From: Nanobdellota archaeon | GTDB lineage: Archaea > EX4484-52 > LFW-46 | NCBI GenBank assembly: GCA_018897155.1 | Contig: JAHILE010000029.1 | Location: 117-64,116, forward strand | Reading direction: 5' to 3' | DNA: 64,000 nucleotides | Shown: in pieces, positions 1,811 through 64,000 of the stretch | How the letters are laid out: every line of letters begins with the position of its first letter | How positions within the stretch are numbered: position 1 is the stretch's first letter | Program-made: the position numbers and the translations under genes | Notes under the pieces: generated by a model | The model's input: only the letters and a program-made list of their open reading frames with translations | What the model was told of the DNA's origin: nothing | Databases searched by the model: none

Positions 1811-4737
1811 CTATGAAATAGTTCTTTTAAATTATCAAACAGTTTTACGTCAAACTTTCCTTGCTTCACTTCGGCGCCACCGCCTTTTGCGCCAAGGCTT
1901 TTCAGCTTTTCGAATTCTGCATCGTTTCCCTTAAAAACAAAAATTCCTGATTTGTTCACAAGCAGGACCTTGTCAAGCCGTTCTGCAATATTGCGCATTG
2001 TTTGGGCGTCAAAATCAACAAGCTTCACATCGCCTGATTTTATCAGCTTTGCTTTTACTTCCGCAATTTTTTGCGCCAGATATTCAATGTCTTTGCGTTC
2101 TTCTTTCCAGCGCGCAAATAACTCGCGCGAGAAGTCTTCAGGATTTTTGCGTTTGATGCCTTTTGCAAATTCCTGGAGATCCACATATTTTTTTCCCGCT
2201 TCATATTTTATGTTTTCTTTTGAAAGATTTTCGCGAAGCTCATTTATTTTTGATTTTTGGATTGCGTATTCTTCCGCAAAGCGCATAAGCGTTTCAAGGA
2301 CTTTCTCCCTTGGCACAGAAAATATTTGCGCGATTTTCTCAATATCTTTTTCATTCACTTTAATCTGCGGGGAGAGGCTTTCAAAGAATGCATTTAATTC
2401 CTGCAATTCTTTTTGCGCGCCTATTTCGTATTTTTTTGCGGCATTTCCTGCCGCGAATTCGATGCGCACAACGCCGTCCTGTATCTTGCTTGAGCCGATT
2501 ATTTTTATGATTTCGGCTTCTTTTGTGTTTTTCAGATGCGTTCCTCCGCAGGCTTCGACATCAACGCCTTCGATTATTATCGCGCGCAGGCGCTTTCCCG
2601 GAACTGCGCCGCCCTGATACAATCTAAAACCGTATTTCTTTTCCGCATCGGTTCTTGGAAGCAGCATGCTTTGGACCGGAATCGCGTCTTTTACAATCTT
2701 GTTTGCAATCGCCTCAATTTTTTTGATTTCATTGCTGTCAAGAGAATCATAATGAGTTATGTCCAGCCTTCCTTTATCAAGAGTTTTTTCCGCACCCGCC
2801 TGCCAGATGTGGCTGCCAAGTATAATTCTAGCCGCGCCGTTTATGATGTGTGCGGATGTGTGGTGCTGAGCAAGCTGCAGTCTTCTTGATTTTTCAATAT
2901 CGCACTTTACTGTTTCGCCTTCTTTAAACGAACTTGCCGGAGCTTTTAGTTCATGGATTATGACATTTCCTTGCTTAAAAACATCTGCGATTTCAATTCC
3001 ATTTATTTTCCCCATGTCGTGCATCTGCCCGCCAGATGTCGGATAGAACGCGGTTTTGTCAAGGACAATATATTTGCCTTCAATTATTTTCAGTACTTTT
3101 GCATCGAAATTCAGCAGCGCGTAATTGTCAAAGTACAGAATATTTGTTTCAGGAATGCTGCTTAGGTTAAATGTTTTTGCCTTTTTTGTTTCCGCCTTTG
3201 CTGCAACCTTCTCATGCCTTTCCGCGACTTTTTTGTAGAAATCGTCAGGAATAGTTATTTTCAGGCCTGCAGATTTCAGCATTTCCGGGCTGATGCCGTT
3301 TGAGTCGTAAAGCTCGATCAGCTTGCTTTCGGTTGCGTCTTTTTCAGAAAGCCCTGAAACTATTTTTCGCGATTTTTCCTTTGTCTCGGCGTATTTTCTT
3401 TTTTCGACTTCAATTATCTTTTTTACTTCTTCAAGGTTTTCCAGAAGCTCGGGATATTGCGCTTTCAGGTATTTTGCATGCCATTCGCAGACATCGTTTA
3501 AGTCTACATTCCAGCCATACTTGTTTGAGATGTCAAGCGATCTTCTAAGAAGCACGCGCAGATTGTATCCGCCTCCGACATTAGATGGCAGAACTCCATC
3601 AGAAAGCGCGACAAGCAGCGATCTTGTATGGTCGCCGATTGAATAAATTCCTGCAAGAGGCATGATGTGCTCTTTTAATTGCTTTGCGTCAATGCCGATT
3701 TTCTTTGCGATTTGCGCCCATGTTTTTTCAATGTCTGCGACCTCATCGATATTCAGAAGGCCTGATAGCGGAAGGAATTTTTTGAATATCTCTTTATTCG
3801 GCGCGATTCCTGTCAGTTTGTAAAGCTTTTCTGAAACTGTCGGAAAAACAGTTTCATAGCTTGTGCTTGCGCCGTTTGTGAACCATGAGTATCTTTCCTG
3901 CCCGGTGCCCATGTCAAGTACTTTGATATTAAGGTCTTTCACAGCGCCGGATTTTACATCGTACTGCATATATACTTGATTTCCGAGTTCAAGCCCTCCT
4001 GAAAAAAATTCAATTGAAGGCCCCATATTCCCTCCGCCGGCCCAAGCATCCTCATGGAATTGCAAATGCTCTTTCGGAATTTTAACGCCTTCAGTCAGCC
4101 ACGTGTATATGTGGCGCAGATAATCATGCGGCGCGTAATCCTTTGGCTTCATGAACGCATGTTGCCCAATCATGACAAATCCGGAATAATGCCTTCCGGT
4201 AATGCCTACATTATCAATATCGTTAAATCGCAGGCAGAATTGCGGCACAACAAGCGGGTTTGCAGGAGGGTCTACTTCGCCTGACACTACATACGGCTGA
4301 AAATCATAAATCGATGCCTGAACAAAATCCGTGTCGTCCCGCCATCTTGCGGCAACCGGATATCGCGCAATCGGGGTGTAGCCGAACTTTTTGAATGTTG
4401 ATGCGAATTTCTGCCATGTTTCGACATAGTCCATTTTGGCTTTTGCAGGCGTGTTTCCGATAAATGTGTAGCCGCCGGAGCAATCAGGCTCGCCGCACAC
4501 TGTTCTTTCGGAGTCTGTCGACCAGAAGAATGTTCCGCATTTCGCGCATTTTTTTCTCCGGAAGCCTTCTGCTTTGAGCACAGCTACGGGATAGTATTTT
4601 TCAGGCTCTGCCTGGGCTTTTAGCTTGAAGGCGCGCTTCATTTCTAATTCCAGCGCTTTCTGCGGCGCGATTGGGACCGGCATGCGATATGATTGGCGGG
4701 AAATTTTAATAAGCGTTGGTTTAATCACTACCGCCAA
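1807..4737 (-). CDS. alaS: alanyl-tRNA synthetase, archaeal type
   Basis: 976 aa; class II catalytic core, editing domain HxxxH motifs (HHTSAHIINGAARIILGSHIWQAG), C-terminal region typical of archaeal AlaRS. Confidence 0.95.
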   Translation of the reverse strand: MAVVIKPTLIKISRQSYRMPVPIAPQKALELEMKRAFKLKAQAEPEKYYPVAVLKAEGFRRKKCAKCGTFFWSTDSERTVCGEPDCSGGYTFIGNTPAKAKMDYVETWQKFASTFKKFGYTPIARYPVAARWRDDTDFVQASIYDFQPYVVSGEVDPPANPLVVPQFCLRFNDIDNVGITGRHYSGFVMIGQHAFMKPKDYAPHDYLRHIYTWLTEGVKIPKEHLQFHEDAWAGGGNMGPSIEFFSGGLELGNQVYMQYDVKSGAVKDLNIKVLDMGTGQERYSWFTNGASTSYETVFPTVSEKLYKLTGIAPNKEIFKKFLPLSGLLNIDEVADIEKTWAQIAKKIGIDAKQLKEHIMPLAGIYSIGDHTRSLLVALSDGVLPSNVGGGYNLRVLLRRSLDISNKYGWNVDLNDVCEWHAKYLKAQYPELLENLEEVKKIIEVEKRKYAETKEKSRKIVSGLSEKDATESKLIELYDSNGISPEMLKSAGLKITIPDDFYKKVAERHEKVAAKAETKKAKTFNLSSIPETNILYFDNYALLNFDAKVLKIIEGKYIVLDKTAFYPTSGGQMHDMGKINGIEIADVFKQGNVIIHELKAPASSFKEGETVKCDIEKSRRLQLAQHHTSAHIINGAARIILGSHIWQAGAEKTLDKGRLDITHYDSLDSNEIKKIEAIANKIVKDAIPVQSMLLPRTDAEKKYGFRLYQGGAVPGKRLRAIIIEGVDVEACGGTHLKNTKEAEIIKIIGSSKIQDGVVRIEFAAGNAAKKYEIGAQKELQELNAFFESLSPQIKVNEKDIEKIAQIFSVPREKVLETLMRFAEEYAIQKSKINELRENLSKENIKYEAGKKYVDLQEFAKGIKRKNPEDFSRELFARWKEERKDIEYLAQKIAEVKAKLIKSGDVKLVDFDAQTMRNIAERLDKVLLVNKSGIFVFKGNDAEFEKLKSLGAKGGGAEVKQGKFDVKLFDNLKELFHR

Positions 4738-5265: not shown

Positions 5266-5355
5266 TTGGTGAATTTATGAAATCATGGAAATTTTTTAAC
5301 GGAAATGCAATTTCCAAGCTTTCATTTCCAAAGTAAAAGGTGAATGAAATGAAAT
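5266..5355 (+). promoter_or_regulatory. conserved promoter/5'-UTR module (copy A) upstream of RNase J-like gene
   Basis: TTTATGAAATCAT...GGAAATGCAATTTCCAAG...TTTCCAAAGTAAAAGGTGAATGAAATGAAA; near-identical module at 61240-61317; shorter copy at 59438-59477. Confidence 0.6.
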
Positions 5356-6662
5356 TTTACTCAGTAAGCGGCTATAATGAAGTCGGAAAAAACATGTCTG
5401 CTATTGAAGTGGGCGATGAAGTGATAATTCTTGACATGGGAATACACCTTGACAAGATTGTGACACTGACAGAGGAGGAGCGCAAAGTTCCGACAAAAGA
5501 GCTGATTGATATTGGCGCACTTCCAAATGATGAATGCCTCAAAGGAAAAAATGTCGTTGCGATAGTGCTTTCCCACGGGCATTTGGATCACTGCGCAGCT
5601 GTTCCGAGGATGGCTGAGCGCTACGGGTGCCCGATTGTTGGAACGCCGTTTACTCTTGCGATTATAAAAGGCCTTCTTGCAGATGATGGAAAAAGCGGCC
5701 TTGTGAAGAATTTGTGCCAGATAAACCACGGCGAAACAATGCGGATTTCAAAGAATTTTGCTGTTGAGATGGTACACATAACGCACAGCATCCCGCAGGC
5801 GTCAATGATAGCACTGCATACAAAAGAAGGAATAATAACATATGCCTGCGACTATAAGCTTGACAACAACCCCACATTTGGGCCCAAGCCGGATTATAAG
5901 CGCATAAAACAACTTGGCGCAGAAGGCGTGAAACTGCACATAAGCGAATGCCTGCGCGTGGCAGAAGAAGCTCGCACCCCTCCGGAATATGTTGCCAAAA
6001 TAATGGTTAATGATGCAATAGATCGTGCTTATGAGGACAATACCGCGGTTATCATAACGAGTTTTGCATCACACATAACACGGCTGCGCAATATAATCGA
6101 AGCAAATAACGGGCGTAGGGAAGTAATTATGCTTGGACGTTCGCTCGATTCGTACGTCAATGCCGCGAAAGAATGCAAGCTTATTGAGGCAGACGACATC
6201 AAGATTTATGGACGAAGAAAAACTATTGCAGCGGCGCTTGAAAAAGTGAAGAGTCATCCGGAAGACTTTCTACTTATTGCGACAGGAAATCAAGGAGAGC
6301 CGAATTCCGCGCTTTCAAGGCTTGCGAGAAAAGAGTTTCCATTTGCCTTGCGAAAGCAGGATCAGGTGATATTTTCTTCAGAAGCGATTCCGAATCCGAT
6401 AAATGAGGCGAACCGTTATATTCTAAAGCGCAATTTGTATGAGCAGGGCGCGCGGATAATGGAGCACGTTCACGTTTCAGGGCATGCGCGCAGGGAAGAC
6501 CACCGCGATATGTTGAAGATGCTTCAACCTCAGTATGTCATTCCGAACCACGGAGAAACAGAGCGGCTTGCGTCATTCGCATCCCTTGCAATGGAGGAGG
6601 GCTGGAAACTCGGCGACACTGTAAAGATAATGTCGAACGGGCAGAGCGTCGGGATAAAGTAG
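5340..6662 (+). CDS. RNase J-like beta-CASP metallo-beta-lactamase ribonuclease
   Basis: HxHxDH motif (VLSHGHLDHCAAVP), beta-CASP arrangement, ~440 aa like archaeal RNase J; GTG at 5340, more likely true start ATG at 5349 preceded by GGTGA SD. Confidence 0.85.
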   Translation: MNEMKFYSVSGYNEVGKNMSAIEVGDEVIILDMGIHLDKIVTLTEEERKVPTKELIDIGALPNDECLKGKNVVAIVLSHGHLDHCAAVPRMAERYGCPIVGTPFTLAIIKGLLADDGKSGLVKNLCQINHGETMRISKNFAVEMVHITHSIPQASMIALHTKEGIITYACDYKLDNNPTFGPKPDYKRIKQLGAEGVKLHISECLRVAEEARTPPEYVAKIMVNDAIDRAYEDNTAVIITSFASHITRLRNIIEANNGRREVIMLGRSLDSYVNAAKECKLIEADDIKIYGRRKTIAAALEKVKSHPEDFLLIATGNQGEPNSALSRLARKEFPFALRKQDQVIFSSEAIPNPINEANRYILKRNLYEQGARIMEHVHVSGHARREDHRDMLKMLQPQYVIPNHGETERLASFASLAMEEGWKLGDTVKIMSNGQSVGIK

Positions 6663-22598: not shown

Positions 22599-22926
22599 TT
22601 TTAATCACTTTCTTCACCGAAAAATGAAATCCTTTCACAAGCTTCGCTTGTTTTGGGATTTAATGTTCCCAAAAGCTTGAAAAGCCATAGGCTTTTCAGG
22701 ACTCTAGGCTTTTCGGCATTCCCGAAAAAGCTTCAAGTTCGCAGCAGCGAACGAGATGATTTTCATAATTATCAGTTTTCTATCATTGTGAGTATAGATT
22801 TAAATAGATTAAAAACCGCACAATTCTGTATTTTCGGCATGCGTCGAAAAATACATGCCCTAATCACAAAGATTCATAAATGCATTGCAGCACTTTTTAT
22901 ATATCTTCGCGCAACTAAGTTAACAT

Positions 22927-26121: not shown

Positions 26122-26862
26122 TCAAGGAATCGGAACCCAAACAGGTTGTATTGAAGGATTTTCTTCAAGATGCGTTTCTTGTGCAAATTTGTAAATATCT
26201 TTTATTGGAAAGTTGGTATATTCTTCAATTAATAAATCCATTTCCTCAAGACCTATTTTTCCTAAGTATTTTTCTTTTAATTCTTTTTCTGCGCGAGCAT
26301 ATTCTTCAGGCAGATTCTTTCTTCCATTAATTTTGTTTGATAAGAATTTTCTAGTTTGCCATAATGCATTAGCAGGTATATAAAAAAGGTCAATAACGGG
26401 TATTGAAGGCCCTACCGGCATTATTCTATAATGCTCTTCGCGGGCGTAAATCACTCTTTTAATTCCAAGTTTATCGTTCGTCCTATCCATTGCAATAGGA
26501 CTATAACAACCCATTATTGAAAGTTCTTCAATCGTTTCTTCAAGTTCTTTTGATTTTGGACCCCAAATACACGGTTGATTAAACGGTATGTACACATTTT
26601 CTTTTTTAGGTATTTCTTTATCAATTAAAAATGCTATTTGTTGGTAATCCGGAGGATAAAACTCGATAGGTTTTTTTGATTTTCCAACAAGATGCAATAC
26701 GAAGTCTCTTAAATATTTCTCATTATCGGTTGTACGTCTCATAATAATCCTCAAAAATAAATTGTTTTTTGGAATTATTAAATATCCAACGCACTTACTT
26801 GCGCCAAAAATCCTTTCGCTTCGCTCTAGGCTTTTTAGCACAAATTTATTCCGGCGCGGCAA
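26122..26862 (-). CDS. hypothetical protein
   Basis: 246-aa ORF; real start probably at an internal Met (MRRTTDNEKYL); no recognised domain. Confidence 0.5.
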   Translation of the reverse strand: MPRRNKFVLKSLERSERIFGASKCVGYLIIPKNNLFLRIIMRRTTDNEKYLRDFVLHLVGKSKKPIEFYPPDYQQIAFLIDKEIPKKENVYIPFNQPCIWGPKSKELEETIEELSIMGCYSPIAMDRTNDKLGIKRVIYAREEHYRIMPVGPSIPVIDLFYIPANALWQTRKFLSNKINGRKNLPEEYARAEKELKEKYLGKIGLEEMDLLIEEYTNFPIKDIYKFAQETHLEENPSIQPVWVPIP

Positions 26863-26904
26863 TTTGTGATAAAAATCCTTTCGCTTCGCTCTAGGCTTTT
26901 TAGC
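26806..26904. repeat. tandem pair of identical 34-nt repeats separated by a 31-nt palindromic spacer; member of a dispersed intergenic repeat family
   Basis: AAAAATCCTTTCGCTTCGCTCTAGGCTTTTTAGC at 26806-26839 and 26871-26904; spacer ACAAATT...AATTTGT; diverged copies near 22660-22760, 35225-35295, 55262-55350, 59689-59730. Confidence 0.85.
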
Positions 26905-27864
26905 TCAATTGTCCAAAGCTGAGACTTGAGCTAAAAATGCTTCAATCTGCAAATCTTCAGTCCCGCCCTCAACAATTCGGAATTCATATTCTCCAAGCTT
27001 GTCAATCAGGGCTGCTTTTGATTTATCCGGAATGTCGATATGCAGAATTTCGCGATGAAACGCCTTTATTACATCGAGCCCTGAAAGCCCGCGCATAATC
27101 ATTAAATCCGCCAGTTTCTTTCGCGCGTCCAAAAACTTCTTGTCAAGAGCCATTTTAAGAATTTCTTTTACTTCTTCGGGGCGCAAGGATGCTGCAACGG
27201 AATAAACGTCGTCTGCATCCACAGTTTTCTTGATTATAGACACTGACTGGAGAAGGTTTATTGCGCGCCTCATGTCGCCTTCAGCGACTCTCAGAAGCGA
27301 GTCCATTCCCGCCTTTGTGATTTCGAGCCCTTCAGTTTTCTCAATGCGGCGTATCTCGTTTTCAACATCTGCATCAGTCAATGGCTTGAAGCGGAAAATC
27401 GCGCATCTGGACTGTATCGGAGGAATCAGCTTTGATGAGTAATTGCACGAAAGAATAAATCTGGTGGTGTTTGTGTATTTTTCCATTGTCCTGCGCATTG
27501 CCTGCTGTGCTTCCTGGGTAAGCGCATCAGATTCGTCAAGAAATATTATTTTGAAATCCGAATTGAACGGCTTTATTCTTGCAAAATCCTTTATTTTGCT
27601 TCTGACAACATTTATTCCTCTTTCGTCAGATGCATTCGTTTCCATGAAATTGCGCTTCCAATCCTCGCCGTAAATCTCCTTTGCAAGCGCTATTGCTGCA
27701 GTTGTTTTTCCGACTCCTGCAGGTCCTGTGAATAGCATGTTCGGAAGCGACTTTTCTTTTACAAAGGCCTTCAGCCTCCCGATTATTTCCGAGTGCCCTA
27801 CTATGTCGTTAAGGCGTTCCGGCCTGTATTTTTCTGTCCAGATTTCAAACATGATCTTTTTCAC
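26905..27864 (-). CDS. rfcS: replication factor C small subunit
   Basis: EKYRPERLNDIVGH, Walker A LFTGPAGVGKTT, DEAD-like IIFLDESD, SRC motif (QSRCAIFRF). Confidence 0.9.
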   Translation of the reverse strand: MKKIMFEIWTEKYRPERLNDIVGHSEIIGRLKAFVKEKSLPNMLFTGPAGVGKTTAAIALAKEIYGEDWKRNFMETNASDERGINVVRSKIKDFARIKPFNSDFKIIFLDESDALTQEAQQAMRRTMEKYTNTTRFILSCNYSSKLIPPIQSRCAIFRFKPLTDADVENEIRRIEKTEGLEITKAGMDSLLRVAEGDMRRAINLLQSVSIIKKTVDADDVYSVAASLRPEEVKEILKMALDKKFLDARKKLADLMIMRGLSGLDVIKAFHREILHIDIPDKSKAALIDKLGEYEFRIVEGGTEDLQIEAFLAQVSALDN

Positions 27865-30226: not shown

Positions 30227-30441
30227 TGCTTTTGAATAGGGTTCTAAGAAGTTGTCGCGTTTTATTAGCATGTATACTAAATTACGGAGCATATTCTAAT
30301 TTACAATTTTTATATAAAAAACAAAAAAAGAACAATCGCGGGCAAGAATCATCTCGTTCGCTTGAGCGAATTCGAAGCCTTTTCGGCAAACCTATCGAGG
30401 AATGCCGAAAAGTCACCCGCGAATTTAATATTTTTAGGAAT

Positions 30442-34437: not shown

Positions 34438-34554
34438 AGGTCCGTGGTCTAGTCATGCGATTGCATAGCAATTTTCCTTATGCTCCGTATGAGAAATTGG
34501 TATGACGCCGCACTCACACTGCGGAGATCCTGAGTTCAATCCTCAGCGGACCTA
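34438..34554 (+). tRNA. tRNA-Val(CAC) with a ~44-nt non-canonical intron in the D-loop
   Basis: Perfect 7-bp acceptor stem AGGTCCG/CGGACCT, T8, anticodon arm CCGCA-CTCACAC-TGCGG, T-arm CTGAG-TTCAATC-CTCAG, followed by T-run; D-arm is interrupted between AGT and TGGTA. Confidence 0.8.
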
Positions 34555-34682
34555 TTTTCATTTTTGAATTACCCTATGCATCGAAAAAATGAAAAGCCGC
34601 GAGTTGCGCGTTAACGCAACGAACGGATTTTTCGCCATCACACTATGTTTTGGGCGAAAACCATTTCATGAGGTGAATTTAA

Positions 34683-34958: not shown

Positions 34959-35681
34959 GCAAAACACGTCTTTATAAATTTTAGTGGATTAGTATATGAT
35001 GCACAAATCGAACACTTAGACAACTATACGAAACTATTAATTGATTTTGAGGCAATGCCTCAAAAGCTTCGAATGAAGTGAGATGAGTTTTATGCCTTTT
35101 GGCAATCAAAAATAAGCGTCACACAACCAATATCGAAAATAGCAAATTGCTTAACTTTTTAAGCGCATGAGAACTGGATTGTGGAATGTTTGTGCATTTT
35201 TAATCATTTCCAATATTCATTGGATTAAAATCCAATCGCTTCGCTCTTGGCTTTTCGGTTATGCCGAAAAAGCATCGAACGCGAGTGAGAGGAATATTTT
35301 TTATTTAAATTTTTTTTATCGGTGATTGTGATGCCGGTGGACTTTATTTGTTAATCGCGGAAAATGAATCAATTTCTTCAGTTGCGCCCACAAGTTCTTT
35401 GAACCTTTCTGATAATTATTCGGATTTAGTTCCAAATGCGCGCGTTTCATTCGCGCAGAAGTTTTTCGGTTTTAGTTTTGGCTTTAACTTCGATTTTGGA
35501 GTTTTGAGCTTTGCTCAAAAGCTTGGTGCTCTTAGCACCATGATTTTTGGATTTGGCTTTATTGTTTAGTTAAGAGCCATGCTTCAAGTTTTTTCTGAAG
35601 AAAGGCGTTTACTGTTACGGTTAATTATGATTATGATTTATATTGATGCTGACGAATGTCGGAAAATGAATTAGGGAAATA

Positions 35682-35915
35682 GTGATTTTCATGCATACAA
35701 GCGAAACTTTGTGTTACATAAAATTAAATGGGAAACGAGACGATTTAGAAATCTATTTAGAGCAAAGAAAGGGATGCGAAGACAGCTGCATTAGATGGTA
35801 TGGTATCAACGATAACACGCACAAAGCGGAGATATGCATCGAAGGATATCGAAACGACCTTGTAAGGGAACTCGAAAAAATCGGAATTTCGCGTGAAGAG
35901 ATAGAATTATGCTGA
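35682..35915 (+). CDS. hypothetical protein (77 aa)
   Basis: ORF only. Confidence 0.35.
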   Translation: MIFMHTSETLCYIKLNGKRDDLEIYLEQRKGCEDSCIRWYGINDNTHKAEICIEGYRNDLVRELEKIGISREEIELC

Positions 35916-37549: not shown

Positions 37550-38169
37550 GTGGCGCTTTTTATGGCATTATCAAAATTGAGAGCGTATGATGTATTTTTG
37601 CTTTCAAATTCATTGCTAAATTTTTCAACAGGATTGTTTTATCCTTTCTGGATAGTATTTTTGCAGAATTTCGGCGGCAGTATTGAGCAGTTTGGTTTTT
37701 CTATAGGGTTGATGGCTTTTTCAGCAGCTATTGCATCTTATTATGCGGGAAAACAGTCAGATACGCTTGGAAGAAACCGCTATTGATAATCGGCGGAGTT
37801 ATGTTGGGATGTATGATGATTGCATACACACTCATCACATCTTTAATACAGTTGTATGTCTTGCAGATTTTAACTGGAATCACAACCGCTATGCAAATGA
37901 CAATGGAAGCTGCATTTTTGGGTGACGTGACTAAAAAAGAATCGCGAGGCAGGGATATTGGAAAATATCACGCGCTCGTAGGCATCATGGCAGCAGTCGC
38001 AATAATGGGCGGCGGATTTGTGGTCGGAAACTTGGGTTTTAAAGTAATTTTTTATATTACTGCGTCACTTGTTTTTATCTCAACCGCAATGTTGTTTTAT
38101 ATTGAGGAAAAACGTATTATCTCAAAGAAAATTCAAGGAAATAAGCATAAAAGTCACAAGTTCCAATAA
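37550..38169 (+). pseudogene. truncated, frameshifted major-facilitator-superfamily transporter (6-TM N-terminal half)
   Basis: ORFs 37550..37786 and 37783..38169 are contiguous in different frames; MFS motif A (GKQSDTLGRK-PLLIIGG) is split by a frame change at A-run 37774-37776; only ~6 TM helices total. Confidence 0.65.
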
Positions 38170-38174
38170 TACTT

Positions 38175-39380
38175 ATGCAACTCTCACCGCGCATTACTGC
38201 ACTTGAAGAAAGCATCCGCAAAATCTCGGAAGCTGCGGCAAAAATTTCAGGATGCGTGCGCTTTGACATAGGCCAGCCGGATTTTAAGACCCCGCAGCAC
38301 ATTCAAGATGCTGCAATACGCGCGATTCGGGAAAAGCCGATGGGCTATGCGCCGATGGTAGGCATTCCGGAACTGAGGCGCGCAATAGCGGATTATGAGA
38401 ACAAAAAAGGCCTTAATCTCGCGCCGGAAAACATAATGGTTACAAACGGCGGCAACGGATCTTTGTTTTGCACGTTTTTGGCGATCATCGAAAAAGACGA
38501 TGAAGTGCTTATTGCAGATCCTGCGTGGCCGCCTTATGAGATGATAGTGCGTTCTGTCGGGGGGGTTCCCGTTTACACGAAATTCTTTGAGGGTGGGGAG
38601 TCCTCAAAGGCTTCGAGTGGAGCGACAGCGAAACGAGATGATTTTGACGGCAAAAAACTGCTCGCGGATTCAATCGAATCTGCGATAACTTCAAAATCAA
38701 AAGCAATTATTGTTAACAGCCCTGAAAACCCTACAGGCCGCGTTGCAAGTGAAAGCGATTTGAAAACAATTGCTGAAATTGCGATTGAACACGGCATAAT
38801 GATTATTTCGGATGAAGTGTATGATAAACTGCTTTTTGGCGGCGCAAAGCATTATTCGATTGCTAAATTCGCGCCCGAAAACACAATACTCATAAACTCC
38901 ACTTCAAAAACATATTCAATGACGGGTTGGAGGCTTGGTTGGCTTGCAGCACCAAAGGATATTATAAAAGAGCTTGCTAAATGCAACCGCGTAACAACCG
39001 CATCGGTTAGCGCAGTAGTGCAATATGCCGCACTTGCGGCGCTTACTGAAAGCCAAGAGTGCGTCCAGGATATGTGCCACGAATACGAAAAGCGGTGCGA
39101 CACGACAGTAAAGCGCATGAAGCAGCTTAACTGGGATTTTATAAATCCGGAAGGTGCGTTTTATGCATTTCCGAAAATTCCCGGTTGCATTGATTCGTGG
39201 AAACTTGCGATGGAGCTTCTGGAAAAAGCAAAAGTCGCACTTGTTCCTGGCGTATCGTTCGGCCCCTCAGGCGAAGGTCATGTGCGCATATGTTATGGCT
39301 CGGTGAATTCGGAATGCATAAACGAGGGCTTTGACAGGATTGAAAAGTATATGAATATAGTCAATAAATGCAAATATTAG
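38175..39380 (+). CDS. class I pyridoxal-phosphate aminotransferase (aspartate aminotransferase family)
   Basis: PLP-lysine region SKTYSMTGWRLGW, 401 aa, small acidic/Ser-rich insertion. Confidence 0.85.
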   Translation: MQLSPRITALEESIRKISEAAAKISGCVRFDIGQPDFKTPQHIQDAAIRAIREKPMGYAPMVGIPELRRAIADYENKKGLNLAPENIMVTNGGNGSLFCTFLAIIEKDDEVLIADPAWPPYEMIVRSVGGVPVYTKFFEGGESSKASSGATAKRDDFDGKKLLADSIESAITSKSKAIIVNSPENPTGRVASESDLKTIAEIAIEHGIMIISDEVYDKLLFGGAKHYSIAKFAPENTILINSTSKTYSMTGWRLGWLAAPKDIIKELAKCNRVTTASVSAVVQYAALAALTESQECVQDMCHEYEKRCDTTVKRMKQLNWDFINPEGAFYAFPKIPGCIDSWKLAMELLEKAKVALVPGVSFGPSGEGHVRICYGSVNSECINEGFDRIEKYMNIVNKCKY

Positions 39381-55250: not shown

Positions 55251-55475
55251 TCATCTCAACATGCATTGGATTGAAATCCTTTCGCAAGCTTTGCTTGCTC
55301 TAGGCTTTTTCAATATCCTCGAAAAAAGCTTGAAAGCGCTATCAAGCTTTCAAGATTTTTAGCCATTTTGAACTATTCACAAAGTTCATTGGGTTCGAAA
55401 GCATGAAAATTCACAAGAATCTTCAAGATTTATCAATTTATTTGGGCTAAAATCAACTTCCTGATAATGAATAAT

Positions 55476-57965: not shown

Positions 57966-58276
57966 GCTTTCAAGCATACTGAAGAATTAATATGGGGCCC
58001 CCGGGAATTCCACGACGTTCAGGTTTTTGACCTCTGCAACAGCAGAGGTCTGTTGTTCTTTCTTTTCTACCCGGACTTGTCTTTTCTTTCTTACAAGAAA
58101 GAAAAGAAACCGAATTGAACCCGGATCGCCAGCAATTTCGAACCGCAAAATTTAATTAATCATAAATTATGCGGCTGCCCCAAGCTGGAAGGCTACCAAG
58201 TTACCCCAAGACCCCAACGTCATAAGAATTGATGCGCATATTTAATAAGGTTTGAAATGCGTGGGGTTTTCTTCAA

Positions 58277-59064: not shown

Positions 59065-59222
59065 TGGGTCAAGCCAGATTTGAACTGGCGACCTCCGCCT
59101 TTCATAAACTGCAAAGTGCTGGACTGCTGATAAATGACCATGCCGAAGGCATGGTCGCTCTAAGCGCCAGCCGATTATGCGGCTGTGTAAGGGCGGCGTC
59201 ATAACCACTAGACTATTGACCC
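59065..59222 (-). tRNA. tRNA-Val(UAC) with ~85-nt intron at the canonical 37/38 position
   Basis: Acceptor GGGTCAA/TTGACCC, D-arm GTCT-AGTGGTTA-TGAC, anticodon stem CCGCC...GGCGG with loop CTTACA interrupted by intron; T-arm GCCAG-TTCAAAT-CTGGC; intron contains perfect hairpin GACCATGCC-TTCG-GCATGGTC. Confidence 0.8.
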
Positions 59223-59437
59223 GTTTGAGATATTTTCGTGCTGATATTGTGGATTTAATAAATTCAAGTAATATTCTTTTAAAATGCTTAAATTCACAAT
59301 CTACTTAATCGCAGATATCAGAGATATCTGAAGAGCGCGATTAACTATAGTTATATAAATCTTAAAAGTATTAAGAACGTATGCTTTTTTAAAAGCACTC
59401 GAATAGTGAAACTGATGAAATCCTGATACTTCGTGTC

Positions 59438-59477
59438 AGGCTTTCGTTTCCAAAGAATGTGGTGAATGAAATGAAAT
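59438..59477 (+). promoter_or_regulatory. conserved 5'-UTR module (copy B, short) upstream of Zn-ribbon protein gene
   Basis: GGCTTTCGTTTCCAAAGAATGTGGTGAATGAAATGAAA. Confidence 0.55.
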
Positions 59478-59629: not shown

Positions 59630-59766
59630 TTTAAGGAGGATATTTTTATCTTGAAAATTCTTGCGAATTTTCAAGCTTTTTAATACAAAGAAAATCCTTT
59701 CGCTTTGCTCAAGGCTTTTTAGCCCAAAGTGAATGGCGAATAGTTAAAAATGGGGAGTGATTAAAA

Positions 59767-61241: not shown

Positions 61242-61317
61242 TTTTATGAAGTCATAAGGTTATGAAGGAAATGCATTCCAAGAGTTCCTTTCCAAAGAAT
61301 AGGTGAATGAAATGAAA
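61240..61317 (+). promoter_or_regulatory. conserved promoter/5'-UTR module (copy C) upstream of geranylgeranyl reductase
   Basis: TTTATGAAGTCATAAGG...GGAAATGCATTCCAAG...TTTCCAAAGAATAGGTGAATGAAATGAAA. Confidence 0.6.
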
Positions 61318-62499
61318 CTTGAAAATTCATACGATGTCGTTATTGTCGGAGCAGGTCCCGGAGGCTCGATTACTGCAAGAGACTGTGCAAAGGCCGGATT
61401 AAAAGTGCTTTTACTTGAAAAACGGCCGGAAATTGGAGCCCCTAAACGATGTGGCGAGGGTATGAGTCTTGAAGCGCTTCAAAAAATAGGGTATTTCGGA
61501 AACGAGCGATTTGTCACTCAAAGAATCGAGACTGGTTTTTTTATTGCACCGAACGGTAAATCAATTGAAATTCCAAGCGGCACTGGCGGTTATGTACTTG
61601 AAAGAAAAGTTTTTGACAAATTTCTTGCATATGATGCCGCGAAAGCCGGCGCAAAAATAGTGTCAAATGCGGAAGCAATAGAGTTGATCAAAACAGACGG
61701 CAAAATCTCAGGTGTTGTCGTTAATTATAATGAATCAAAACATAGAATTGGCGCAAAAGTGGTTGTGGCCGCTGATGGAATTGAATCAAAAATCGCAAAG
61801 ATGGCTGGGCTCAATACTTCCAGTAGCCTAATGAATATGGCTTCAGGCTATCAATATGAAATGGCTGGTATTGATATAGAAAATCCGAAAGCTCTTTATT
61901 TTTATTTTGGAAAAAGCATTGCTCCAAGCGGCTACGTCTGGATATTCCCAAAAGGCGAACACATCGCAAACGTAGGCATCGGCATCATTGCGCAAAAAGA
62001 CGGAAGAACCGCAAAACATTATCTTGATAAATGGATTGATTCGATGCCTTTTGTTAAAAAGGGCTCGATTATAGAGGAGAATGCCGGCGGGATACCTATA
62101 GGGAATTTCCTTAAAAAAATGACTGCTGATAATTTCCTTGCAGTAGGGGATGCTGCGCATCAGGTTAATCCAATACATGGCGGAGGGCTTGCCGAAGCGA
62201 CAAGCGCCGGGATGTTTGCCGCTAAATTAATCGTTAAGTCAATAAAAGAAGGAAACACTTCTGATAAAAAGCTTGACGAATACAATGGGCTTTGGTGGAA
62301 TGAACGCGGGAATCATCTTCTGAAGCTTGAAAAGCTGATGAATGCTTTCTCAAAGATATCCGATGATGATGTAAATAATATAACAAATTCTATTGACAGC
62401 GATGGCATTTCAAAAATAATTAACGGTGATTTGGCATTCTCGGCAAAGCTGCTGATGAAAAATCCGAAGCTTATAAAATTGGCTGCCACTCTTATTTAG
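61303..62499 (+). CDS. geranylgeranyl reductase (digeranylgeranylglycerophospholipid reductase family)
   Basis: FAD motif YDVVIVGAGPGGSITARDCAKAGLKVLLLEK, GGR-family length; likely true start ATG at 61312 after GGTGA SD. Confidence 0.85.
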   Translation: MNEMKLENSYDVVIVGAGPGGSITARDCAKAGLKVLLLEKRPEIGAPKRCGEGMSLEALQKIGYFGNERFVTQRIETGFFIAPNGKSIEIPSGTGGYVLERKVFDKFLAYDAAKAGAKIVSNAEAIELIKTDGKISGVVVNYNESKHRIGAKVVVAADGIESKIAKMAGLNTSSSLMNMASGYQYEMAGIDIENPKALYFYFGKSIAPSGYVWIFPKGEHIANVGIGIIAQKDGRTAKHYLDKWIDSMPFVKKGSIIEENAGGIPIGNFLKKMTADNFLAVGDAAHQVNPIHGGGLAEATSAGMFAAKLIVKSIKEGNTSDKKLDEYNGLWWNERGNHLLKLEKLMNAFSKISDDDVNNITNSIDSDGISKIINGDLAFSAKLLMKNPKLIKLAATLI

Positions 62500-63572: not shown

Positions 63573-63769
63573 ATTGCGGTATTCTTCGGGGTTCTTTAAT
63601 AGGGATCATGCATTTCATGGATTCGTATAACCATGATATTGACAGGGTGCAAAGGTGCGTCATACATTACGCAGTTCCCGACGGAAGAATTATTCCGTTC
63701 TGCGCGTTTAATGTCCTTCCGGAAAGTTACCGTGAGCAGATAAACAAAAAATTCGGAATTTCTACCTAA
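63566..63769 (+). CDS. hypothetical small protein (67 aa)
   Basis: ORF overlapping previous stop; 3' end overlaps first copy of terminal direct repeat. Confidence 0.3.
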   Translation: MVNCGILRGSLIGIMHFMDSYNHDIDRVQRCVIHYAVPDGRIIPFCAFNVLPESYREQINKKFGIST

Positions 63770-63933
63770 CTTCGCCACATGAACATTAAAGTTATTCAAG
63801 TTTTGCGTTTTTTAAAATTCACACTCAAATTTCAGTTTTTGTGAATTGATATTTGAGCTCAACTGCCCAAAAAACGCAAAACTTCAGAAAGTTACATTTT
63901 CTACCTAACTTCGCCACATGAACATTAAAGTTA
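63761..63933. repeat. 34-nt direct repeat (two copies, 139-nt period) enclosing nested inverted repeats
   Basis: TCTACCTAACTTCGCCACATGAACATTAAAGTTA at 63761-63794 and 63900-63933; internal inverted repeats GTTTTGCGTTTTTT/AAAAAACGCAAAAC and AATTCAC/GTGAATT. Confidence 0.8.
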
Positions 63934-64000
63934 CATTTTCTAACACTTTTTGTGAAAAACATGAAAGAAAATGTAATTTTCCCCGTAGAGAATTTAGCAT

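Follow-up and report, generated by a model that had tools for sequence, protein, structure and literature searches.

The described systems that come closest to the repeats reported here are the REP sequences (repetitive palindromes of extragenic DNA) of enterobacteria and pseudomonads with their mosaics, the bacterial interspersed mosaic elements (BIMEs), the Rickettsia palindromic elements (RPEs), and several MITEs (transposable elements of the miniature inverted-repeat type). For archaea, REP-like palindromes are on record in generic terms (PMC12306157), and some DPANN genomes have the highest MITE density among archaea (PMC11602168). DPANN genomes are very small and dense, and little is known of how transcripts end or how the genome changes in them. 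Here we describe a family of short hairpin-forming repeats in a 64,000-nt stretch of a DPANN archaeon, hereafter the window (Nanobdellota archaeon, GenBank assembly GCA_018897155.1, contig JAHILE010000029.1, positions 117 to 64,116 of the forward strand). The family came to notice through a 34-nt sequence that occurs twice behind the gene for the small subunit of replication factor C (RFC). We favour, with moderate confidence, the view that this 34-mer belongs to a family of short, non-autonomous, interspersed repeats of the REP/BIME, MITE and RPE kind. A full-text search of the literature found no description of this hairpin family or of rows of C-terminal cassettes like those that accompany it at RFC.

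The elements resemble REP and BIME sequences in being imperfect intergenic palindromes of about 35 nt that occur singly or in alternating clusters joined by linkers. REPs are also transcribed as hairpins at mRNA 3' ends and conserved at the stem foot and at mismatches, traits that the present family recalls. As in REP- and REPIN-type repeats, imperfect extragenic palindromes of ~20-40 nt form inverted pairs, here at 35223-35305 and 22622-22767. Unlike REPs, however, they have no GTAG-type 5' tetranucleotide, and no RAYT (REP-associated tyrosine transposase, a Y1 transposase) was seen in ~120 kb of this genome. In addition, REPs are GC-rich, whereas this family is AT-rich with A/T-run arms, has a copy in a coding sequence (CDS) and lives in an archaeal host. 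RPEs are palindromic selfish repeats that lie both in frame in conserved genes and between genes of a host with a reduced genome, as here, but they are bacterial and 100-150 bp long, while our elements measure 35-60 nt with one in-CDS copy of ~14. The terminator-like MITEs of pneumococcus (SPRITE, RUP, BOX) and Neisseria (Correia) are likewise small and non-autonomous, have the shape of an intrinsic terminator and alter operon junctions; they possess defined terminal inverted repeats (TIRs), fixed target-site duplications and known parent insertion sequences (IS), none of which is established for this family. Sulfolobus SM1-4 MITEs and Haloquadratum PATEs are also non-autonomous archaeal repeats, and PATEs rely on IS200/IS605-type subterminal hairpins, but these elements are hundreds of bp long with an IS partner, in contrast to the single 35-60-nt hairpin seen here.

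A common imperfect hairpin and its distribution

As the initial annotation had indicated, the 34-mer, AAAAATCCTTTCGCTTCGCTCTAGGCTTTTTAGC, has two exact matches on the forward strand, at 26806-26839 and 26871-26904. Shuffled sequence gave none. The second match adjoins the TGA stop codon (26905-26907, reverse strand) of a gene that its translation and its Pfam matches (Rep_fac_C, AAA, Rad17) identify as the RFC small subunit. Between the two lies the 31-nt spacer ACAAATTTATTCCGGCGCGGCAATTTGTGAT (26840-26870), whose ends carry the inverted repeats ACAAATT and AATTTGT already described there. The informative strand, however, is the complement of the one first written: read in the RFC sense, the copy next to the stop codon is GCUAAAAAGCC-UAGA-GC-GAA-GC-GAAA-GGAUUUUU. 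Four near-identical metagenome-assembled genomes (MAGs) share the RFC locus and are identical across the repeat, which makes them uninformative on conservation, and the near-identical same-species assemblies L001-L013 were given no weight as conservation evidence.

Every copy adopts one common imperfect hairpin with the general form AAAAAGCC-UAGA-(inner stem-loop)-GAAA-GGAUUUUU on the informative strand. Outermost in the fold is an A-run; inside it follow a G.A mismatch, four base pairs that covary, a tandem G.A/A.G and, innermost, a stem-loop that varies, while the opposite arm ends in a U-run. The part enclosed by the tandem G.A/A.G holds at least 2 pairs plus a loop and is free in sequence and length; its stem has 2-9 bp and is fully compensated between copies (GC/GC, GCAAGC/GCTTGC, ACAAGC/GCTTGT, GTTGCG/CGCAAC, GCGCCAC/GTGGCGC). 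The arms of the element are A-run+GCC and GGA+T-run; the whole is a single hairpin in which no separate TIRs could be delimited.

The covariance that the initial annotation had proposed to look for is present. In 14 hand-picked copies, 75.9% of cells were paired compared with 67.4% after shuffling (0 of 500 shuffles reached the observed value) and 31-51% in slid registers. The alignment of 37 copies, which is biased towards structure because it was fitted to the covariance model (CM), gave 80.7% against 68.7%, and 11 of its 14 pairs changed on both sides. In the same copies the six mismatched purines are near-invariant (G in 37/37, G in 35/37, A in 37/37, G in 35/37, A in 36/37 and A in 36/37). 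This suggests that a specific protein recognises the G.A positions, and the conserved core offers a handle for finding it.

Known RNA motifs did not account for the fold. A kink-turn, the binding site of L7Ae, was rejected since the inspected folds lack a 3-nt bulge: the tandem G.A does occur in them, but within a symmetric 4x4 loop or an uninterrupted helix. K-loop, C/D box, H/ACA, bulge-helix-bulge (BHB) and selenocysteine insertion (SECIS) elements were likewise set aside, with no box motifs in the inspected folds and nothing in Rfam, where no family reached the gathering threshold at the hairpins and only tRNAs passed.

Two covariance models, R1 and R2, place 12-14 copies in the window (13 matches with E < 0.02, plus some weaker ones), compared with 6 copies found by nhmmer and 7 by a structural descriptor that gave 0 in 30 shuffles. 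The CM match at 5331-5362 is probably a false positive. The dispersed intergenic copies listed in the initial annotation are all real, and these searches added seven more (Table 1). The census covered ~0.4 Mb of DNA, including a 27.8-kb contig of the sister species LFW-46 with 7-10 CM matches and the RFC loci of 11 relatives, which carry CM matches as well; model R2 offers a means of annotating the family in MAGs of relatives. In the window 7 copies point one way and 5-6 the other. A strand bias linked to the direction of replication had been considered, as the six copies found first shared the forward strand, and was dropped once the covariance models showed the 5-6 opposite ones. A looser, gapped pattern gave one IMG/VR match of uncertain meaning. 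A lone CM match of 27 bits lies on a viral contig (L046 6246-6293, IMG/VR UViG_3300046171_000287), apparently within a CDS, and may be due to chance or be a further in-CDS copy.

Hairpin copies as inserted DNA

Four comparisons with relatives show that the hairpin copies are inserted DNA. In a class I/II aminotransferase gene, a 57-nt in-frame insertion (38589-38645) supplies 19 codons and adds EGGESSKASSGATAKRDDF. It is present in 2 of 15 aligned sequences, those of the window species and of one relative with 81% protein identity, and absent from the 13 others. Its DNA consists of a junction hairpin (TTTGAGG..CCTCAAA) and a hairpin copy, inserted in a T-run (empty site AAATTTTTTGAC). Being in frame within a conserved CDS and missing from orthologues, the insert is of the type that is a hallmark of RPEs (PMC10969869). 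At RFC, the relative L027 carries a 60-nt block within the last codons, flanked by ATTTTTGGCGCA and more, for which L028 and L029 show the empty site. The 98-nt stretch at ~35222-35319 that holds an inverted pair of copies (35223-35305) is absent from LFW-46. Finally, the spacer between the L44e and S26e genes measures 230 nt in the window and 220 nt in LFW-46, both with copies, and 22-24 nt in two further relatives, and that between aS21 and EF-1beta measures 137 and 268 nt in the two element-bearing species versus ~27 nt in relatives.

The initial annotation, which proposed a terminator-associated structured repeat, a MITE-like element or a protein-binding site, is supported in part. The MITE-like reading gains support from these presence/absence differences at orthologous sites and from the multi-copy, short, non-coding and dispersed nature of the family; it fails as a classical MITE, with neither a target-site duplication of fixed length nor, in the ~120 kb of this genome annotated, a related autonomous IS. 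Direct repeats, which the initial annotation had proposed to look for, do flank the filled sites.

Several observations weigh against our reading of the family. The length of the flanking direct repeats varies from site to site: those at the aminotransferase insert (TTTTG(A)) have 5-6 nt, those at 35.2 kb ~8-10 nt and those at RFC 12-25 nt. The ~120 kb of this genome that was annotated yielded no transposase to act as partner (HUH/Y1, RAYT or a matching IS), and Pfam annotation of the window shows no integrase or Y1/HUH transposase gene. The dispersed copies are never identical, the best pair agreeing at 31 of 34 positions, so there is no sign of recent movement. A strict 26-nt pattern yielded nothing genuine in public collections: 0 matches in GTDB representative genomes, 0 in IMG/VR and, in JGI metagenomes, only 2 chance matches within a high-GC bacterial glnD-like gene. 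Both the invariant G.A positions and the hairpin's retention at the RFC stop codon, in relatives whose RFC identity is only ~70%, have the look of functional constraint, not of junk. Moreover, with short T-runs and one copy tolerated in a CDS, many copies cannot be strong terminators.

No single fixed transposition chemistry fits flanking repeats of such variable length, which argue against a classical transposase and could accord with hairpin-directed or template-switch copying. The element would spread by copying itself to oligo-T tracts, with the target next to it being duplicated. Its mechanism would not be a classical cut-and-paste transposase; single-stranded hairpin recognition or template switching at quasi-palindromes could serve. 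A more specific proposal, speculative and rather unlikely as a whole, is that the hairpin goes beyond selfish DNA and that the G.A/tandem-GA core is the recognition site of a lineage-specific enzyme, either an RNA 3'-end former or an HUH-type single-stranded DNA nuclease. This enzyme would place copies of the element in oligo-T tracts and in doing so duplicate and invert the target; at RFC the outcome would be a series of C-terminal cassettes that recombination could exchange. If so, it would constitute an undescribed archaeal route to rewriting gene ends and operon junctions.

Variable flanking repeats could also be explained without any transposition. The hairpins and flanking duplications would then arise locally, by slippage or template switching at quasi-palindromes and oligo-A/T, and the likeness among copies would reflect shared mutational bias and gene conversion. 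The arms that are complementary to locus-specific neighbouring sequence agree with this, as do the species-specific array periods after RFC (65 nt in the window, 71 nt in L022, 60 nt in L030) and the fact that the window RFC hairpins are identical to each other with cassettes only 48-70% alike, a combination suggestive of conversion or of independent insertion. Nevertheless, a single 25-30-nt core with invariant purines recurs at unrelated loci, in species with 60-75% protein identity, and also inside an unrelated CDS, and slippage does not make the same core de novo; we judge a purely local origin distinctly unlikely.

The hairpin repeat splits ribosomal-protein operons, takes the place of the final codons in an essential gene of replication and adds 19 residues to a conserved enzyme. 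These three effects suggest that even minimal genomes are reshaped by palindromic DNA of a selfish or semi-domesticated kind, in the way that RPEs reshape those of Rickettsia.

Only one transposase gene lies near the window, a DDE_Tnp_1 gene at the end of the contig; its start is near 63961, and it extends beyond the window (L010 13681-15072). Just upstream of it, an exact 36-nt direct repeat, TTTCTACCTAACTTCGCCACATGAACATTAAAGTTA, occurs at 63759-63794 and 63898-63933 and is probably part of an IS end; the repeats beside this gene are unrelated in sequence to the hairpin.

Tail copies at RFC and terminator-like placement

Behind each hairpin at RFC comes a copy of the final ~10 RFC codons. What had been described as a palindromic spacer is therefore no mere spacer, as it corresponds to a decayed copy of the C-terminal codons of the adjacent gene. 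The initial annotation had overlooked that an RFC-terminal hairpin is common to distant DPANN relatives: a related hairpin starts 0-5 nt from the RFC stop in 11 relatives as judged by CM and in 14 as judged by eye, with RFC identity of 62-73%. Arrays also occur after RFC, with 3 copies in L022 and 4 in L030. Relatives, too, carry tail copies of this kind. In L023 the relic tail differs from the true end at 7 positions, all of them synonymous, and the relic of L027 equals the true RFC end of the hairpin-free L028 and L029.

These tails would also be expected if RFC were an attachment or recombination site at which elements that integrate supply an RFC 3' end of their own, in the manner of phage 21 at icd, leaving displaced cassettes behind with the hairpin as att core. 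The cassettes do keep an open frame and differ mostly synonymously, as in L023, the L027 relic matches the true end of its relatives, and the gene downstream of RFC varies among relatives. However, just 31-36 nt separate the repeats, there is no integrase nearby, and the hairpin also stands at many loci unrelated to RFC, which leaves this explanation very improbable. A minimal or orphan CRISPR array comes to mind from the layout of two identical 34-nt repeats around 31 nt, sizes that fit a repeat and a spacer. Yet there are only two repeats, both the spacer and the sequence after the second repeat duplicate the last codons of the adjacent gene, annotation of the window showed no cas genes, the diverged copies stand singly at scattered sites with one inside a CDS, and the strict pattern is absent from viral, genome and metagenome collections but for the two chance matches already mentioned. 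The RFC-derived spacers, the annotation of the window and the dispersed copies effectively refute a mini-CRISPR. Read-through of the RFC stop was considered too, given that RFC, the TGA, a 162-nt spacer and the next gene form one open frame (26742-27852, reverse strand); relatives have more in-frame stops and other stop codons, and we regard the open frame as a coincidence.

The RFC codons F-L-A-Q, ~25 nt upstream, are complementary to the 5' arm of the first hairpin, in which the stop codon is included; in the window, codons TTTTTAGCTCAA face TTGAGCTAAAAA. The arm tracks synonymous changes in these codons, TTTCTTGCTCA occurring with TGAGCAAGAAA in L018 and TTTTTGGCGCA with GCGCCAAAAA in L023.

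The layout of A-run, stem-loop and T-run reads alike on both strands. Oligo-T is known to be enough for archaeal termination. Intrinsic bidirectional terminators have the same A-run, stem-loop and T-run and the same positions, right after stop codons and in convergent spacers. They differ from the present elements, whose stem contains the U-run, often with a GC clamp farther out, and whose loop and mismatches keep their sequence from locus to locus. Of the terminator-associated repeat among the earlier suggestions, the shape is real, and some copies lie after gene ends, convergent spacers included; one copy is inside a CDS. In L019, L021, L022, L025, L026 and L038 the gene after RFC is convergent and the hairpin arrays occupy the convergent spacer; in the window a copy lies in the convergent MC1/ATPase spacer. 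A role as promoter or 5'-untranslated element, suggested by early copies 26-64 nt upstream of start codons, was set aside in view of these convergent-spacer copies in the window and in relatives. The T-runs measure 2-5 nt, often with only 3-4 nt after the hairpin. It is plausible, from their sequence, that some copies act as transcript ends or stabilisers made of a hairpin and a U-tract. Once inserted, an element would be transcribed in either direction as such a hairpin and could serve as transcript end or stabiliser; this shape may explain the long persistence after RFC and the presence after MC1.

The same placement raises the question of whether the element is functional and not selfish, with a lineage-specific protein that would bind the tandem G.A core and the G.A mismatch to end, process or stabilise transcripts, and copies recruited where useful. 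It would account for non-canonical purines being the most conserved positions while the pairs covary, and for the hairpin at the RFC stop in 11-14 relatives and in the convergent spacers after RFC and MC1, where LFW-46 has an unrelated hairpin followed by T5 at the corresponding place of the MC1 spacer. It is also favoured by the stop-spanning arm, which covaries at three positions with the synonymous RFC codons between L018 and L023. Orientation speaks otherwise, since across the two species ~14 copies are sense and 8 antisense to flanking genes, and a strictly strand-specific RNA role hence cannot apply to every copy. Furthermore, one copy lies in frame within a CDS, copies break operon junctions that measure 22-27 nt in relatives, and neither an Rfam family nor, given the symmetric 4x4 loop without 3-nt bulge, a kink-turn matches. 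We judge this functional explanation unlikely.

Feature coordinates, junction hairpins and neighbouring repeats

Table 1. Hairpin copies and RFC tail copies in the window. CM start, first position of the covariance-model match; New, copy absent from the list of the initial annotation.
Feature	Position	Strand	CM start	New	Remarks
Long-form copy, inner stem ACAAGC/GCTTGT	22622-22661	-	22622		26 nt upstream of rpoL start codon; nhmmer, descriptor, CM
Copy of the CGAGATGATTTT subfamily	22722-22767	+	22722	yes	CM 25 bits, E 0.0012; junction hairpin 22707-22731 joins it to a partial copy at 22700
Second pseudo-copy of RFC C-terminal codons, FLAQVSALDI*	26778-26810	-			Follows second hairpin; overlaps TATA-like box of next gene
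Hairpin copy 2	26806-26839	-	26803		Sequence identical to copy 1; CM match 26803-26839, 55.6 bits
Pseudo-copy of RFC C-terminal codons, FLSQIAAPE*	26846-26875	-			From T-run of the 3' arm of hairpin 1 through most of the 31-nt spacer
Hairpin copy 1	26871-26904	-	26868		Directly 3' of RFC stop; exact 34-mer; CM match 26868-26904, 53.7 bits; folded
True RFC end, last 10 codons and stop, FLAQVSALDN*	26905-26937	-			Translation, inverted repeat
Copy after MC1 gene	30342-30386	-	30342	yes	56 nt past MC1 stop, convergent spacer; CM
Copy near tRNA-Val, inner stem GTTGCG/CGCAAC	34588-34635	+	34588	yes	~35 nt past tRNA-Val; descriptor, CM
Copy of UUCGAA-UGAA-GUGAGA type	35058-35095	+	35058	yes	Preceded by junction hairpin TTTTGAGG..CCTCAAAA; CM
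Inverted copy pair	35223-35305 (35223-35259 -, 35264-35305 +)	both	35223, 35264	yes (35264-35305)	Common junction hairpin 35249-35273; CM
Diverged copy without tandem GA	35513-35551	+	35513	yes	CM 22.6 bits
In-frame insert, junction hairpin and hairpin copy	38589-38645	+	38602	yes	Aminotransferase gene; CM match 38602-38648
Long-form copy, inner stem GCAAGC/GCTTGC	55269-55313	-	55269		Between L44e and S26e genes, 26 nt upstream of S26e start; descriptor, CM
Short-form copy	59687-59723	-	59687		Between aS21 and EF-1beta genes, antisense to both; CM

The nearest dispersed relative of the 34-mer lies within the last of these copies (59690-59723, 3 mismatches). The copy near tRNA-Val has an orthologue in the sister species with a different inner stem, GCGCCAC/GTGGCGC.

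Second hairpins, which have the A/T-run arms in common with the copies, often link these into chains of alternating orientation, a layout that resembles the BIME mosaics of E. coli. The hairpins of the form GCTTTTCGG-loop-CCGAAAAAGC that the initial annotation had noted at some of the copies are indeed found, at 22707-22731 and 35249-35273, and each is the junction between two inverted copies. The arms of junction hairpins combine the common T-run or A-run with a locus- or subfamily-specific tetramer (CGG/CCG, GAGG/CCTC, AGCC/GGCT, AACC/GGTT, CAATC/GATTG), and several of these hairpins contain the next gene's start codon together with a Shine-Dalgarno (SD)-like GGTGA.

Other repeats were observed in the same genome. 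The ~800 nt at 34959-35750 contain four hairpin copies, no credible open reading frame (ORF) and no Rfam match, with blocks 72-85% identical to LFW-46; within them, ~35160-35222 is a pseudo-copy of the S26e 5' region comprising the SD, the ATG and 12 codons. Near-identical 41-nt gene-start modules (CTTTCRTTTCCAAAG..GGTGAATGAAATGAAAT) precede three unrelated genes at 5315-5355, 59437-59477 and 61278-61318, and each can fold into a hairpin around the SD and start codon. A second hairpin family, CTTGAAAATTCTTRCGAATTTTCAAGCTTTTT, occurs at 59649-59681 and, 93% identical at a non-orthologous site, at L014 9450-9492, with related forms at 55326-55354. Another dispersed repeat is an 88-nt segment shared by 58026-58112 and L014 6784-6870, 83% identical and in non-orthologous places.

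Some further features of the host genome were noted. On contig JBDRJO010000032.1 of GCA_043814905.1, the distance between rpoL and NIF3 is ~75.3 kb, whereas the window has 37.7 kb (22598 to 60281); an integrated element or a misassembly could explain the ~37.6 kb of extra DNA or rearrangement between them. The tRNA-Val(CAC) gene (34440-34557, forward strand) has an apparent intron in the D-loop region, for which Rfam reports 34481-34554 only and ARAGORN misses the gene, and its LFW-46 orthologue (L014 ~3290-3365) is without intron. A 158-nt tRNA match, hence with a long intron, lies at 59065-59222 on the reverse strand and does not appear in the ARAGORN output. Between the AlaX-like and aminotransferase genes, a 128-aa ORF (37783-38169, forward strand) matches part of the MFS_1 model and looks like a gene fragment.

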